From Escherichia coli (lineage in GTDB: Bacteria > Pseudomonadota > Gammaproteobacteria > Enterobacterales > Enterobacteriaceae), in assembly GCF_022846255.1 (NCBI RefSeq), contig NZ_AP025682.1: DNA of 64,000 nt. One strand, written 5' to 3'. Shown one piece after another: positions 1,702-34,541 of the stretch; position 1 is the stretch's first letter; each line of letters begins with the position of its first letter. Under the pieces are notes generated by a model that made no database searches, was not told the DNA's origin, and worked only from the letters and a program-made list of their open reading frames with translations. Made by a program: the position numbers and the translations under genes.

Positions 1702-2970
1702 ATGATTATCAAACGCACTCCTCAAGCCGCGTCGCCTCTGGCTTCGTGGCTTTCTTATCTGGAAAACCTGCACAGTAAAACTATCGATCTCGGCCTTGAG
1801 CGCGTGAGCCAGGTCGCGGCGCGTCTTGGCGTTCTGAAACCAGCGCCATTTGTGTTTACCGTTGCGGGTACTAATGGCAAAGGCACCACCTGCCGTACGC
1901 TGGAGTCGATTCTGATGGCGGCAGGGTACAAAGTGGGCGTCTACAGTTCGCCGCATCTGGTGCGTTATACCGAGCGCGTACGTGTGCAGGGTCAGGAATT
2001 GCCGGAATCGGCCCACACCGCTTCTTTTGCGGAGATTGAATCGGCACGCGGTGATATTTCCCTGACCTATTTCGAGTACGGTACGCTCTCGGCGTTGTGG
2101 CTGTTCAAGCAGGCACAACTTGACGTAGTGATTCTGGAAGTAGGGCTGGGCGGTCGTCTGGACGCAACCAATATTGTCGATGCCGATGTCGCGGTAGTAA
2201 CCAGTATTGCGCTGGATCATACCGACTGGCTGGGGCCAGATCGTGAAAGTATTGGTCGCGAGAAAGCAGGTATCTTTCGCAGCGAAAAACCGGCAATTGT
2301 CGGTGAGCCGGAGATGCCTTCTACCATTGCTGATGTGGCGCAGGAAAAAGGTGCACTGCTACAACGTCGGGGCGTTGAGTGGAACTATTCCGTCACCGAT
2401 CATGACTGGACGTTTAGCGATGCTCACGGCACGCTGGAAAATCTGCCGTTGCCGCTTGTCCCGCAACCGAATGCCGCAACGGCGCTGGCGGCACTGCGTG
2501 CCAGCGGGCTGGAGGTCAGTGAAAATGCCATTCGCGACGGGATTGCCAGCGCAATTTTGCCGGGACGTTTCCAGATTGTGAGCGAGTCGCCACGCGTTAT
2601 TTTTGATGTCGCGCATAATCCACATGCGGCGGAATATCTCACCGGGCGTATGAAAGCGCTACCGAAAAACGGGCGCGTGCTGGCGGTTATCGGTATGCTA
2701 CATGATAAAGATATTGCCGGAACTCTGGCCTGGTTGAAAAGCGTGGTTGATGACTGGTATTGTGCGCCACTGGAAGGGCCGCGCGGTGCCACGGCAGAAC
2801 AACTGCTTGAGCATTTGGGTAACGGCAAATCATTTGATAGCGTGGCGCAGGCATGGGATGCCGCAATGGCGGACGCTAAAGCGGAAGATACCGTGCTGGT
2901 GTGTGGTTCGTTCCACACGGTCGCACATGTCATGGAAGTGATTGACGCGAGGAGAAGCGGTGGCAAGTAA
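1702..2970 (+). CDS. folC: Bifunctional folylpolyglutamate synthase / dihydrofolate synthase
   Basis: 422-aa ORF recognised as FolC; downstream of accD as in E. coli. Confidence 0.97.
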   Translation: MIIKRTPQAASPLASWLSYLENLHSKTIDLGLERVSQVAARLGVLKPAPFVFTVAGTNGKGTTCRTLESILMAAGYKVGVYSSPHLVRYTERVRVQGQELPESAHTASFAEIESARGDISLTYFEYGTLSALWLFKQAQLDVVILEVGLGGRLDATNIVDADVAVVTSIALDHTDWLGPDRESIGREKAGIFRSEKPAIVGEPEMPSTIADVAQEKGALLQRRGVEWNYSVTDHDWTFSDAHGTLENLPLPLVPQPNAATALAALRASGLEVSENAIRDGIASAILPGRFQIVSESPRVIFDVAHNPHAAEYLTGRMKALPKNGRVLAVIGMLHDKDIAGTLAWLKSVVDDWYCAPLEGPRGATAEQLLEHLGNGKSFDSVAQAWDAAMADAKAEDTVLVCGSFHTVAHVMEVIDARRSGGK

Positions 2971-3616
2971 GTTTCAGAATCGGTTAGTGGGCACGATCGT
3001 GCTGGTGGCGCTGGGGGTGATTGTACTTCCAGGGCTGCTGGACGGGCAGAAAAAACATTATCAGGATGAGTTCGCGGCTATCCCGCTGGTGCCGAAAGCG
3101 GGCGATCGCGATGAGCCTGATATGATGCCAGCCGCCACCCAGGCGTTGCCGACGCAGCCGCCGGAAGGCGCAGCGGAAGAGGTGCGGGCAGGTGATGCCG
3201 CAGCACCGTCGCTCGATCCGGCCACTATTGCAGCCAATAACACCGAGTTTGAACCGGAACCTGCACCGGTCGTCCCACCGAAGCCGGTGGAGCCGCTTAA
3301 GCCAAAGGTTGAAGCACCACCTGCGCCGAAGCCAGAACCGAAGCCGGTCGTGGAAGAAAAAGCAGCGCCAACGGGTAAAGCCTATGTTGTACAACTGGGG
3401 GCGCTGAAAAATGCCGATAAAGTGAATGAGATTGTCGGTAAGCTGCGCGGTGCCGGTTATCGGGTTTATACGTCGCCATCCACGCCAGTGCAGGGTAAAA
3501 TTACCCGTATTCTGGTTGGGCCAGATGCCTCGAAAGATAAGCTGAAAGGTTCGCTGGGTGAGCTCAAGCAACTTTCTGGCTTAAGTGGTGTGGTAATGGG
3601 CTATACACCGAATTAA
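2960..3616 (+). CDS. dedD: Cell division protein DedD (SPOR domain)
   Basis: ORF 2942..3616; GTG at 2960 gives ..ASKFQNRLVG..; TM segment, Pro-rich linker, C-terminal SPOR-like region; overlaps folC 3' end; exact start uncertain. Confidence 0.88.
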   Translation: MASKFQNRLVGTIVLVALGVIVLPGLLDGQKKHYQDEFAAIPLVPKAGDRDEPDMMPAATQALPTQPPEGAAEEVRAGDAAAPSLDPATIAANNTEFEPEPAPVVPPKPVEPLKPKVEAPPAPKPEPKPVVEEKAAPTGKAYVVQLGALKNADKVNEIVGKLRGAGYRVYTSPSTPVQGKITRILVGPDASKDKLKGSLGELKQLSGLSGVVMGYTPN

Positions 3617-3625
3617 TACGGTCTT

Positions 3626-3798
3626 GCCTGATGCGACGCTGGCGCATCTTATCAGGCCTGGGCTGGAGTAGCCCCGTAGGTCGGATAAGGCGTTTACGCC
3701 GCATCCGACAGTCGTTGCCTGATGCGACACTGGCGTGTCTTATCAGGCCTACGCTGGAGCAGCCCCGCGCCGCATCCGACACGCATTGCACGATGCCG
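3626..3798. repeat. BIME cluster of about 4 REP (repetitive extragenic palindrome) units
   Basis: Alternating copies of GCCTGATGCGACGCTGGCGCATCTTATCAGGCC and GTAGGTCGGATAAGGCGTTTACGCCGCATCCGACA between dedD and cvpA. Confidence 0.9.
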
Positions 3799-3873
3799 CA
3801 AAGGCATAAAAAGTCGATGGCGTTGAATATTTTTTCAGCGCCATTTTTATTGATGCGCGGGAAGGAAATCCCT

Positions 3874-3889
3874 ACGCAAACGTTTTCTT
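3874..3889 (+). promoter_or_regulatory. PurR operator (PUR box) in cvpA-purF promoter region
   Basis: ACGCAAACGTTTTCTT matches PUR-box consensus; about 60 bp upstream of cvpA start. Confidence 0.7.
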
Positions 3890-3945
3890 TTTCTGTTAGA
3901 ATGCGCCCCGAACAGGATGACAGGGCGTAAAATCGTGGGACACAT

Positions 3946-4434
3946 ATGGTCTGGATTGATTACGCCATAATCGCGGTGATTGCTTTTTCCTCTCTGGTTA
4001 GCCTGATCCGCGGCTTTGTTCGTGAAGCGTTATCGCTGGTGACATGGGGTTGTGCTTTCTTTGTTGCCAGTCATTACTACACTTACCTGTCAGTCTGGTT
4101 TACGGGCTTTGAAGACGAACTGGTTCGAAATGGGATTGCCATCGCGGTACTGTTTATCGCTACCCTGATCGTTGGTGCTATCGTGAACTTCGTGATAGGC
4201 CAGTTGGTGGAGAAAACGGGGTTGTCAGGCACCGATCGGGTGTTGGGCGTCTGTTTCGGTGCGTTGCGCGGTGTGTTGATTGTTGCTGCCATTCTCTTCT
4301 TTCTCGACTCCTTTACCGGGGTGTCGAAAAGCGAAGACTGGAGCAAATCACAGCTGATCCCGCAGTTCAGTTTTATCATCAGATGGTTTTTTGATTATCT
4401 GCAAAGCTCGTCAAGTTTCTTGCCCAGAGCGTAA
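3946..4434 (+). CDS. cvpA: Colicin V production membrane protein CvpA
   Basis: 162-aa hydrophobic ORF MVWIDYAIIAV...; first gene of cvpA-purF-ubiX cluster. Confidence 0.95.
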   Translation: MVWIDYAIIAVIAFSSLVSLIRGFVREALSLVTWGCAFFVASHYYTYLSVWFTGFEDELVRNGIAIAVLFIATLIVGAIVNFVIGQLVEKTGLSGTDRVLGVCFGALRGVLIVAAILFFLDSFTGVSKSEDWSKSQLIPQFSFIIRWFFDYLQSSSSFLPRA

Positions 4435-4470: not shown

Positions 4471-5988
4471 ATGTGCGGTATTGTCGGTATCGCCGGTGTT
4501 ATGCCGGTTAACCAGTCGATTTATGATGCCTTAACGGTGCTTCAGCATCGCGGTCAGGATGCCGCCGGCATCATCACCATAGATGCCAATAACTGCTTCC
4601 GTTTGCGTAAAGCGAACGGGCTGGTGAGCGATGTATTTGAAGCTCGCCATATGCAGCGTTTGCAGGGCAATATGGGCATTGGTCATGTGCGTTACCCTAC
4701 GGCTGGCAGCTCCAGCGCCTCTGAAGCGCAGCCGTTTTACGTTAACTCTCCGTATGGCATTACGCTTGCCCACAACGGCAATCTGACCAACGCTCACGAG
4801 TTGCGTAAAAAACTGTTTGAAGAAAAACGCCGCCACATCAACACCACTTCCGACTCGGAAATTCTGCTTAATATCTTTGCCAGCGAACTGGACAACTTCC
4901 GCCACTACCCGCTGGAAGCCGACAACATTTTCGCCGCCATCGCTGCTACAAACCGCTTAATCCGCGGCGCGTATGCCTGTGTGGCGATGATTATCGGCCA
5001 CGGTATGGTTGCTTTCCGCGATCCAAACGGGATTCGTCCGCTGGTACTGGGGAAACGTGATATTGACGAGAACCGTACAGAATATATGGTCGCTTCCGAA
5101 AGCGTTGCGCTCGATACGCTGGGCTTTGATTTCCTGCGTGACGTCGCGCCGGGCGAAGCGATTTACATCACTGAAGAAGGGCAGTTGTTTACCCGTCAAT
5201 GTGCTGACAATCCGGTCAGCAATCCGTGCCTGTTTGAGTATGTATACTTTGCCCGCCCGGACTCGTTCATCGACAAAATTTCCGTTTACAGCGCGCGCGT
5301 GAATATGGGCACCAAACTGGGCGAAAAAATTGCCCGCGAATGGGAAGATCTGGATATCGACGTGGTGATCCCTATTCCGGAAACCTCGTGCGATATCGCG
5401 CTGGAAATTGCGCGTATTCTGGGCAAACCGTACCGCCAGGGCTTCGTTAAAAACCGCTATGTTGGCCGCACCTTCATCATGCCGGGTCAGCAGCTGCGTC
5501 GTAAGTCCGTGCGCCGTAAACTGAACGCCAACCGCGCCGAGTTCCGCGATAAAAACGTCCTGCTGGTCGACGACTCTATCGTCCGTGGCACCACGTCTGA
5601 GCAGATTATCGAGATGGCACGCGAAGCCGGAGCGAAGAAAGTGTACCTCGCTTCTGCGGCACCGGAAATTCGCTTCCCGAACGTTTACGGTATCGATATG
5701 CCGAGCGCCACGGAACTGATCGCTCACGGTCGCGAAGTAGATGAAATTCGCCAGATCATCGGTGCTGACGGGTTGATTTTCCAGGATCTGAACGATCTGA
5801 TCGAAGCCGTTCGCGCTGAAAACCCGGATATCCAGCAGTTTGAATGCTCGGTGTTCAACGGCGTCTACGTCACCAAAGACGTTGATCAGAGCTATCTCGA
5901 TTTTCTTGATACTTTACGTAATGACGATGCCAAAGCCGTGCAACGTCAGAACGAAGTGGAAAATCTCGAAATGCATAACGAAGGATAA
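4471..5988 (+). CDS. purF: Amidophosphoribosyltransferase
   Basis: 505 aa, N-terminal MCGIVGI (Ntn-hydrolase Cys1), PRTase motif. Confidence 0.98.
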
Positions 5989-6082
5989 CACCTTCGCTCA
6001 GGGTGCCGGTCTGGCACCCTGACTTGCAACTCCCGTCGAAATCCTGCAAAGTCTGCCTGCAAGTCTGACAGGGCAACTATTT

Positions 6083-6652
6083 ATGAAACGACTCATTGTA
6101 GGCATCAGCGGTGCCAGCGGCGCGATTTATGGCGTGCGCTTATTACAGGTTCTGCGCGATGTCGCAGATGTTGAAACGCATCTGGTGATGAGCCAGGCCG
6201 CGCGCCAGACCTTATCTCTTGAAACGGATTTTTCCCTGCGCGAAGTGCAGGCGTTAGCTGATGTGACGCACGATGCGCGCGATATTGCTGCCAGCATCTC
6301 TTCTGGTTCTTTCCAGACGCTGGGGATGGTGATTTTACCCTGTTCAATCAAAACCCTGTCCGGCATTGTCCATAGCTATACTGATGGCTTACTGACCCGT
6401 GCGGCAGATGTGGTGCTGAAAGAGCGTCGCCCGCTGGTGCTCTGCGTGCGTGAAACACCATTGCACTTAGGCCATCTGCGTTTAATGACCCAGGCGGCAG
6501 AAATTGGTGCGGTGATTATGCCTCCCGTTCCGGCGTTTTATCATCGCCCGCAATCCCTTGATGATGTGATAAATCAGACGGTTAATCGTGTTCTTGACCA
6601 GTTTGCGATAACCCTTCCTGAAGATCTCTTTGCCCGCTGGCAGGGCGCATAA
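6083..6652 (+). CDS. ubiX: Flavin prenyltransferase UbiX
   Basis: 189-aa ORF MKRLIVGISGASGAIYG..., flavoprotein fold signature. Confidence 0.96.
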   Translation: MKRLIVGISGASGAIYGVRLLQVLRDVADVETHLVMSQAARQTLSLETDFSLREVQALADVTHDARDIAASISSGSFQTLGMVILPCSIKTLSGIVHSYTDGLLTRAADVVLKERRPLVLCVRETPLHLGHLRLMTQAAEIGAVIMPPVPAFYHRPQSLDDVINQTVNRVLDQFAITLPEDLFARWQGA

Positions 6653-6833
6653 CTCCGCTGTTGCCCTGTTTCAGGGCAATTTTGCAACCGCGATCAAATC
6701 CTCGACATTTTGTTCCTTTCGATGAATCGAAACGCTGCGATTCAACCGCCATACCTGCTATCTTCAACTCTAGGACAATAATGCAACGTCTTATTAACAT
6801 ATTTAACGTTGAATGTTACTGTTGTCGTAAAGA

Positions 6834-17817: not shown

Positions 17818-19962
17818 TTACTGCTGCTGTGCAGACTGAATCGCAGTCAGCGCGATGGTGTAGACGATATCGTCAACCAGTGCGCCACGGGACAGGTCGT
17901 TAACCGGCTTGCGCATACCCTGCAGCATCGGTCCGATAGAGATCAGGTCAGCAGAACGCTGTACCGCTTTGTAGGTGGTGTTACCGGTGTTCAGATCCGG
18001 GAAGATGAACACGGTAGCGCGACCTGCAACCGGAGAGTTCGGTGCTTTGGATTTCGCAACGTCAGCCATTACCGCAGCGTCGTACTGCAGCGGACCGTCG
18101 ATCATCAGGTCAGGACGTTTTTCCTGCGCCAGACGAGTTGCTTCGCGAACTTTTTCTACGTCGCTACCAGCACCAGAAGTCCCGGTGGAGTAGGAGAGCA
18201 TAGCAACGCGCGGTTCGATACCGAAGGCCGCAGCGGAATCTGCGGACTGAATCGCGATTTCTGCCAGCTGTTCTGCGGTCGGATCCGGGTTGATCGCACA
18301 GTCACCGTAAACGTAAACCTGTTCCGGCAGCAGCATGAAGAACACGGAAGATACCAGGGAGCTGCCCGGTGCAGTTTTGATCAGCTGCAGCGGCGGACGG
18401 ATGGTGTTTGCGGTAGTGTGAACAGCACCGGAAACCAGACCATCAACTTCATCCTGTTCCAGCATCAGCGTACCGAGAACCACGTTGTCTTCCAGCTGTT
18501 CGCGGGCAACGGTTTCGGTCATGCCTTTGTTCTTACGCAGTTCGACCAGACGACCAACATAGCTTTCGCGAACCACTTCTGGATCAACGATTTCAATGCC
18601 TGCACCCAGTTCTACACCCTGAGACGCTGCAACACGGTTGATCTCTGCCGGATTACCCAGCAGTACGCAAGTTGCGATACCACGTTCAGCACAGATAGCG
18701 GCTGCCTTAACGGTACGCGGTTCGTCACCTTCCGGCAGAACGATACGTTTGCCCGCTTTGCGCGCAAGTTCAGTCAGCTGATAACGGAACGCCGGCGGAG
18801 ACAGACGACGGCTGCGCTCAGAAGTGGCCGTCAGAGAATCGATCCAGTCAGCGTTGATGTAGTTAGCAACGTATTCCTGAACTTTCTCGATACGCTCGTG
18901 ATCGTCAACCGGAACTTCCAGGTTGAAGCTCTGCAGGCTCAGAGAAGTCTGCCAGGTGTTGGTGTTCACCATAAATACCGGCAGGCCTGTAGCGAAAGCA
19001 CGTTCGCACAGTTTAGAAATGCGCGCGTCCATTTCGTAGCCGCCAGTCAGCAGCAGGGCACCGATTTCTACGCCGTTCATGGCAGCCAGGCACGCGGCAA
19101 CCAGCACGTCAGGACGGTCTGCGGAAGTCACCAGCAGAGAACCGGCACGGAAGTGCTCCAGCATGTGTGGAATGCTGCGTGCGCAGAAAGTGACGGATTT
19201 AACGCGGCGAGTATTGATGTCGCCTTCGTTGATGATGGTCGCATTCAGGTGGCGAGCCATATCGATCGCACGAGTCGCGATCAGGTCAAAGCTCCACGGC
19301 ACCGCGCCGAGAACCGGCAGCGGGCTGGATTCTTGCAGCTTCGCCGGATCAACATTGTTTACTTTAGCTTTGGAAGAGTCGTCGAAAATCTCGGACAGAT
19401 CCGGGCGAGTACGACCCTGTTCATCAACCGGTGCGTTCAGTTTGTTAACGATAACGCCGGTGATGTTGGTGTTTTTGGCACCGCCGAAGCTGTTGCGGGT
19501 CAGTTCGATACGCTCTTTCAGCTGTTCCGGGGTGTCAGTGCCCTGAGACATAACGAAGACGATTTCCGCATTCAGCGTTTTAGCGATTTCGTAGTTCAGA
19601 GACTGGGCAAACTGGTGTTTACGTGTCGGGACCAGACCTTCAACCAGAACGACTTCAGCGTCTTTGGTGTTAGCGTGGTAGTTCGCGATGATCTCTTCCA
19701 TCAGCACATCTTTCTGATTGCTGGAAAGCAGACCTTCAACGTAGCTCATTTTCAGCGGTTCAGCGGCCGTCGTGGTGGAAGAGTTCGCACGCACGATAGT
19801 CGTAGTCTGATCGGGCGCATCGCCACCGGTACGCGGCTGAGCGATAGGTTTGAAAACGCTCAGACGAACGCCTTTGCGTTCCATTGCACGGATCACGCCA
19901 AGGCTGACGCTGGTCAGACCGACGCTGGTTCCGGTAGGGATCAGCATAATAATACGGGACAC
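17818..19962 (-). CDS. pta: Phosphate acetyltransferase
   Basis: 714-aa ORF recognised as Pta; downstream of ackA on same strand. Confidence 0.98.
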
Positions 19963-30849: not shown

Positions 30850-32652
30850 ATGGTGAACAATATGACCGACTTAACCGCGCAAGAACCCGCCTGGCAGACC
30901 TGCGATCATCTTGATGATCCGGTGATTGGCGAACTGCGCAACCGTTTTGGGCCGGATGCCTTTACTGTTCAGGCGACTCGCACCGGGGTTCCCGTTGTGT
31001 GGATCAAGCGTGAACAATTACTGGAAGTTGGCGATTTCTTAAAGAAACTGCCGAAACCTTACGTCATGCTGTTTGACTTACACGGCATGGACGAACGTCT
31101 GCGCACACACCGCGAAGGGTTACCTGCCGCGGATTTTTCCGTTTTCTACCATCTGATTTCTATCGATCGTAACCGCGACATCATGCTGAAGGTGGCGCTG
31201 GCAGAAAACGACCTGCACGTACCGACCTTCACCAAACTGTTCCCGAACGCTAACTGGTATGAGCGTGAGACCTGGGATCTGTTTGGCATTACTTTCGACG
31301 GTCACCCGAACCTGCGCCGCATCATGATGCCGCAAACCTGGAAAGGTCACCCGCTGCGTAAAGATTACCCGGCGCGCGCTACCGAATTCTCGCCGTTTGA
31401 GCTGACCAAAGCCAAACAGGATCTGGAGATGGAGGCCCTGACCTTCAAACCGGAAGAGTGGGGGATGAAGCGCGGCACCGAAAACGAGGACTTCATGTTC
31501 CTCAACCTCGGTCCGAACCACCCGTCTGCGCACGGTGCTTTCCGTATCGTTTTGCAGCTTGATGGCGAAGAGATTGTCGACTGCGTACCAGACATCGGTT
31601 ACCACCACCGTGGCGCAGAGAAAATGGGCGAACGCCAGTCCTGGCACAGCTACATTCCGTATACCGACCGTATCGAATACCTCGGCGGCTGCGTTAACGA
31701 AATGCCTTATGTGCTGGCGGTAGAGAAACTGGCTGGGATCACCGTGCCGGATCGCGTTAACGTCATTCGCGTAATGCTCTCCGAACTGTTCCGCATCAAC
31801 AGTCACCTGCTGTATATCTCCACCTTTATTCAGGACGTCGGCGCGATGACGCCAGTGTTCTTCGCCTTTACCGATCGTCAGAAAATTTACGATCTGGTGG
31901 AAGCAATCACTGGTTTTCGTATGCACCCGGCGTGGTTCCGTATTGGCGGCGTAGCGCACGACCTGCCGCGCGGCTGGGATCGCCTGCTGCGTGAGTTCCT
32001 CGACTGGATGCCGAAACGTCTGGCGTCTTACGAGAAAGCGGCGCTGCAAAATACCATTCTGAAAGGTCGTTCCCAGGGCGTTGCCGCCTATGGCGCGAAA
32101 GAGGCACTGGAGTGGGGCACCACTGGCGCGGGCCTGCGTGCTACCGGGATCGACTTCGACGTGCGTAAGGCGCGTCCGTATTCTGGCTATGAAAACTTCG
32201 ACTTTGAAATCCCGGTGGGTGGTGGTGTTTCTGACTGCTACACCCGCGTAATGCTGAAAGTGGAAGAGCTGCGCCAGAGTCTGCGCATTCTTGAGCAGTG
32301 CCTCAACAACATGCCGGAAGGCCCGTTCAAAGCGGATCATCCGCTGACTACGCCGCCGCCGAAAGAGCGCACGTTGCAACATATCGAAACCCTGATCACC
32401 CACTTCCTGCAAGTGTCGTGGGGGCCGGTGATGCCAGCCAATGAATCTTTCCAGATGATTGAGGCGACCAAGGGGATCAACAGTTACTACCTGACCAGCG
32501 ACGGTAGCACCATGAGTTATCGCACCCGTATCCGTACGCCGAGTTATGCGCATTTGCAGCAAATTCCGGCGGCGATCCGCGGCAGCCTGGTGTCTGACCT
32601 GATTGTTTATCTGGGCAGTATCGATTTTGTTATGTCAGATGTGGACCGCTAA
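30850..32652 (+). CDS. nuoC: NADH-quinone oxidoreductase subunit C/D (fused)
   Basis: 600-aa ORF; alternative ATG at 30862 would give 596 aa. Confidence 0.96.
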
Positions 32653-34489: not shown

Positions 34490-34541
34490 CCGAATTTCGA
34501 TTAACGCTCAGTCTCTGACTGAGAAAACTGGAAGCATGCTA

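Follow-up and report, generated by a model that had tools for sequence, protein, structure and literature searches.

The PUR box upstream of cvpA in an Escherichia coli window is very probably the PurR operator of the cvpA-purF-ubiX unit

The window, by which we mean the whole 64-kb stretch of Escherichia coli DNA that was analysed, carries the genes cvpA, purF and ubiX on its plus strand, downstream of a candidate PurR operator (PUR box). A search with the 1.2 kb around this box, counting matches that covered 80% or more of it, recovered 5413 of 5426 complete E. coli genomes, the window being 95–99% or more identical to these 5413 genomes. RefSeq annotation of the matching genomes placed dedD, cvpA and purF under the match itself and gave the gene order with flanks as truA-dedA-accD-folC-dedD-cvpA-purF-ubiX-argT-hisJ. 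The CvpA, PurF and UbiX open reading frames all scored above curated NCBIfam cut-offs, as did the open reading frame at 2942–3616 for DedD. The first gene of the unit, cvpA (3946–4434, 162 aa), matched the equivalog family NF008100 with 338 bits (cut-off 264). It is followed after 36 nt by purF (4471–5988, 505 aa; TIGR01134, 542 bits), which encodes amidophosphoribosyltransferase, the enzyme of the first committed step of de novo purine synthesis, and after a further gap of 94 nt by the last gene, ubiX (6083–6652, 189 aa; NF004685, 310 bits), encoding a flavin prenyltransferase.

An in vitro run-off study grouped cvpA, purF and ubiX into a single operon that prefers sigma-70, with similar ratios (PMC3141248), and Cho et al. 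handled cvpA-purF-ubiX as a single transcription unit (PMC3159470), while one iModulon summary names cvpA-purF only. A simple terminator scanner called no terminator in the purF-ubiX gap or after ubiX, and reported nothing in either gap of the unit. The purF-ubiX gap contains a 9-bp hairpin (5999–6022, CAGGGTGCC/GGCACCCTG) without a T-run, which could modulate read-through into ubiX, and 3' of ubiX an 8-bp hairpin (TTGCCCTG/CAGGGCAA) is followed by TTTTG (6661–6684). Control of ubiX by read-through is plausible, and within the proposal that PurR controls the unit it has the thinnest direct documentation.

The spacer between dedD and cvpA (3620–3800) was observed to be a REP/BIME array, within which an extra 71-nt REP unit (3697–3767) is present in the window and in strain GF131 and absent from K-12 MG1655. 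Two Rfam families were also observed: naRNA4, a REP-derived nucleoid-associated non-coding RNA, at 3679–3749 on the plus strand (80 bits, gathering score 59.5), and the nuoG RNA cis-regulatory motif at 34492–34534 on the plus strand (50.3 bits, gathering score 33), the latter fitting the nuo operon in the window. A run-off microarray listed the intergenic region upstream of cvpA (3617–3945) as 'transcribed in opposite direction', with a sigma-70/sigma-S value of 1.71 (PMC3141248). Closer to cvpA, the terminator scan returned a terminator-like hairpin of 12 pairs with a T-run on the plus strand (3816–3852), which bounds the cvpA control region on the left and is presumably the terminator of the folC-dedD transcript. 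The PUR box lies beyond it at 3874–3889 on the plus strand, and is followed by a putative extended -10 element, TGTTAGAAT (TGn plus TAGAAT; 3894–3902, plus strand), which was read from the sequence and is also conserved.

The box, ACGCAAACGTTTTCTT, is an imperfect 16-bp palindrome with a CpG at its centre. Its left half equals the consensus, while its right half is off-consensus at positions 13 and 15, where T13 and T15 give GTTTTCTT versus the palindromic GTTTGCGT; ACGCAAAC is a half-site within the box. Measured against the perfect PurR palindrome ACGCAAACGTTTGCGT the box has two mismatches, and it was the only site in the 64-kb window within two mismatches of that palindrome (0.05 sites expected from dinucleotide shuffles, with any match in 5 of 100 shuffles). 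A looser cut of three mismatches gave at least one match in 43 of 100 shuffles, and a resemblance at that level is unremarkable. The published degenerate consensus ACGNAAACGTTTGCNT was matched with one mismatch in either orientation, for which the chance expectation is 0.02. A preliminary description of this DNA had placed a close match to the PurR operator consensus upstream of cvpA, and we found both statements to be accurate: the sequence at 3874–3889 is exact and the box begins 72 nt 5' of the ATG of an open reading frame that NCBIfam identifies as CvpA.

To score the box we used a position weight matrix (PWM) made from the 27 other ChIP-supported PurR motifs of Cho et al. 2011 (Table 1, PMC3159470), with the cvpA site left out. 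Under this leave-one-out matrix the box scored 22.03 bits and ranked sixth among 28 experimentally supported PurR sites, which themselves ranged from 7.4 to 25.2 bits; the score thus lies well inside the range of known PUR boxes rather than beneath it. The exact score distribution gave P = 1.9e-8 per position at 22.03 bits, or 0.0025 expected hits per window, and the same score was reached in 4 of 1000 windows simulated with a first-order Markov model. The runner-up position in the window was 9 bits lower. Both second-best sites, at 30936–30951 on the minus strand (13.0 bits) and at 19864–19879 on the plus strand (12.9 bits), were rejected as chance-level matches, with 1.1 hits of 13 bits or more expected per window by chance. 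No further credible PUR box was found in the PWM scan of the 64-kb window.

The comparison with curated operators gave an identity. The reverse complement of the box, AAGAAAACGTTTGCGT, is the very motif that Cho et al. assigned to the PurR ChIP-chip peak of cvpA-purF-ubiX in K-12 (2011, Table 1; PMC3159470), and has a single occurrence at the K-12 locus (NC_000913.3, 2,430,820–2,430,835). Their experiment, which used tagged PurR, gave a log2 enrichment of 1.77 at cvpA-purF-ubiX with adenine and no peak without it (PMC3159470). Purified PurR was studied by EMSA on a cvpA-purF fragment spanning -171 to +56 (PMC5829826), and cvpA-purF is included in the PurR-controlled Pur-1 iModulon. Between 3769 and the cvpA start codon only one base, 3791, distinguishes the window from K-12 MG1655, and this base lies outside the box. 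The 16-bp sequence, the flanking DNA between the dedD terminator hairpin and the cvpA start codon, the 72-nt distance and the downstream genes are shared by the window and K-12, with no difference in the control region; the differences, namely the substitution at 3791 and the extra REP unit, lie farther upstream. The purR gene, which K-12 carries at 1,737,844–1,738,869, lies outside the 64-kb window.

Many structures of PurR have been solved, 1pnr and 1wet among them, and we take these to include complexes with purF-operator DNA. In PurR-DNA complexes the minor groove is opened at the central CpG by the hinge helices. The original mapping of the purF operator is said to be that of Makaroff and Zalkin in 1985 and of Rolfes and Zalkin in 1988, and in the latter work (J Biol Chem 263) point mutations in the operator reportedly abolished purine repression while promoter strength was kept. 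We assign the box as the PurR operator of cvpA-purF-ubiX with a probability of about 0.96, an assignment made for the window by its sequence and contradicted by none of our observations; PurR binding in vivo and in vitro, and its dependence on adenine, are known from published work on K-12 or EHEC DNA of identical sequence. The PurR control of the cvpA-purF-ubiX unit proposed in the preliminary description is likewise supported by the identical ChIP-mapped motif and by the three genes found downstream, with ubiX the member for which documentation is thinnest.

To examine conservation we searched for CvpA relatives in a set with one genome for each species. This returned 80 loci, all from Enterobacteriaceae or unclassified MAGs and all with CvpA at least 90% identical. 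The identical 16-mer was observed in 78 of the 79 species representatives whose loci had enough upstream DNA. The single species variant, ACGCAATCGTTTTCTT, carries A7T, a compatible change in that T7 is also present in the PurR-bound tsx and glyA sites. The distance from the box to the cvpA start ranged from 70 to 75 nt across species. A footprint, calculated as identity to the window base over 80 distinct aligned Enterobacteriaceae upstream regions, gave 0.999 for the PUR box, 1.000 for the 4 nt directly 3' of it and 0.997 for TGTTAGAAT. The leader and the hairpin flanks had values of 0.87–0.91 (the hairpin at 3816–3852 itself, 0.91), and the REP-containing DNA farther upstream had a value of 0.31. 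The whole of 3866–3902 is invariant, beyond the 16 bp of the box.

Within E. coli, the 39 nt from 3860 to 3898 were identical in 5349 of 5425 complete genomes, leaving 76 that differ. One sampled strain of these 76, E. coli FCI56, carries T13C inside the box (ACGCAAACGTTTCCTT, window position 3886). Three sampled variants of a 60-nt query had all of their changes outside the box. Their changes were C3858T, a common polymorphism outside both the box and the -10, and, in one variant (HCP4S3_I4), G3899A, which turns the -10 hexamer from TAGAAT into TAAAAT.

The arrangement of box and promoter can be read from the same segment. Four nucleotides separate the box from the extended -10, whose hexamer TAGAAT matches TATAAT at five of six positions. 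Canonical 17-nt spacing puts the -35 on ACGCAA, the hexamer that opens the box and makes a poor -35. A generic sigma-70 -35/-10 scan of 3500–4100 called no promoter. This scanner demands at least four of six matches in the -35 hexamer and is blind to the cvpA promoter because its -35 is weak, and we rejected the null result as an argument against a promoter of the TGn extended -10 type. On this anatomy the cvpA transcription start would fall at about 3908–3911, with the centre of the box near -28, and the box would occupy the -35/spacer position, an overlap that rests on the start predicted from the TGnTAGAAT motif. Our literature search for a measured cvpA transcription start found none. A 6-bp hairpin (GCGCCC...GGGCGU) is possible where the cvpA mRNA is predicted to begin (3903–3928). 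Folding of the 5' leader (3903–3960) gave z = -0.13, no better than shuffled sequences, and a leader structure is unsupported.

These observations suggest the following model for repression. When hypoxanthine or guanine is present, a corepressor-loaded PurR dimer would bind the pseudo-palindrome, with one helix-turn-helix placed on each half-site and the hinge helices inserted into the minor groove at the CpG in the middle. A sigma-70 promoter with a weak -35 and an extended -10 would have its -35 and the greater part of its spacer within the box. Because it covers this position, bound PurR would exclude RNA polymerase, and transcription of cvpA, purF and, through read-through, ubiX would fall. 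Steric occlusion as the mode of repression is what we infer from this layout. It is consistent with the general observation that PurR sites lie between the -35 and -10 and act on initiation (Cho et al., PMC3159470), and with another published statement, that PurR sites mostly overlap the promoter, the exceptions being the purB roadblock and the upstream site of carAB. The dependence on corepressor is supported by the ChIP signal, which was obtained with adenine only (PMC3159470).

Three other explanations of the site were weighed. The idea that the box resembles the PurR consensus by accident and regulates nothing could draw on the ease with which sites three mismatches from the palindrome arise in shuffled DNA, yet the real site is two mismatches away and scores 22 bits, a level at which both expectations lie far below one per window. 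It is also identical to a ChIP-mapped site and is invariant in nearly all species examined, against 31% conservation farther upstream, and we give chance next to no weight. Another repressor of the LacI/GalR family, for example RbsR, could be the chief binder of a similar AAACGTTT core with PurR as a bystander; a central CG and an A/T-rich core are common to operators of the LacI family, and cross-talk of RbsR with pur genes has reportedly been seen. The flanking bases of the ACGC/GCGT type are, however, those of a PurR site, and the published binding was observed with tagged PurR in an adenine-dependent manner and with purified PurR in EMSA, which leaves this explanation with a negligible likelihood.

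The remaining explanation holds that the conservation is that of core promoter DNA, with PurR binding secondary or weak and purine control coming mostly from elsewhere. It would account for the invariance of all of 3866–3902, including the two non-consensus bases of the right half, which a site optimised purely for PurR would not need. Against it stand a PWM score among the best of known PurR sites, adenine-dependent ChIP occupancy, binding in EMSA and the place of cvpA-purF in the Pur-1 iModulon. Moreover, the promoter and operator roles are compatible, their overlap being what makes repression work. We regard this explanation as very unlikely, while noting that the invariance of the box could in part reflect promoter function besides PurR binding. 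With the box taken as a PurR operator, T13 and T15 still call for comment, as these non-consensus positions are as invariant as the consensus bases across about 80 species of Enterobacteriaceae. Selection may act on this deviation from an optimal PurR site itself, and the box would then be an element under two constraints and not a palindrome in decay, a tentative suggestion that we think somewhat less probable than its converse. Their invariance could come from a second role of T13 and T15 as part of the extended -10 promoter's spacer. Alternatively, an affinity for PurR below the maximum could define the purine threshold at which the first committed step is controlled.

As a regulatory site the box is already known. 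It is the long-known purF operator and belongs to textbook biology, with nothing new in its identification, and it is useful here only as a positional anchor that marks the window as the dedD-cvpA-purF-ubiX region of E. coli. The archetype of PurR sites is the purF operator, which served for the early genetic work, for footprinting and for the crystal structures of PurR bound to DNA. The cross-species footprint, in which the box and the extended -10 are invariant in about 80 species, likewise confirms the site and is not a discovery.

The cvpA box shares with the other PUR boxes of E. coli (purT, purHD, purL, purC, purMN, purEK, codBA and glyA among others) the 16-bp pseudo-palindrome ACGNAAACGTTTGCNT with its central CpG, as well as a placement that as a rule overlaps the -35 and -10 or falls between them. 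It differs from them in its half-site GTTTTCTT, which departs twice from the palindrome. The purB and purR sites are of a different kind, being downstream roadblock sites, and carAB has a far-upstream site. The wider family of LacI/GalR operators, including lacO, galO and the Cra and CytR sites, shows the same binding of a dimeric helix-turn-helix protein to an inverted repeat, and insertion of the hinge helix at the central base step is common to the family. DNA binding by PurR requires its corepressor, hypoxanthine or guanine, whereas LacI behaves in the opposite manner and is released by its inducer.
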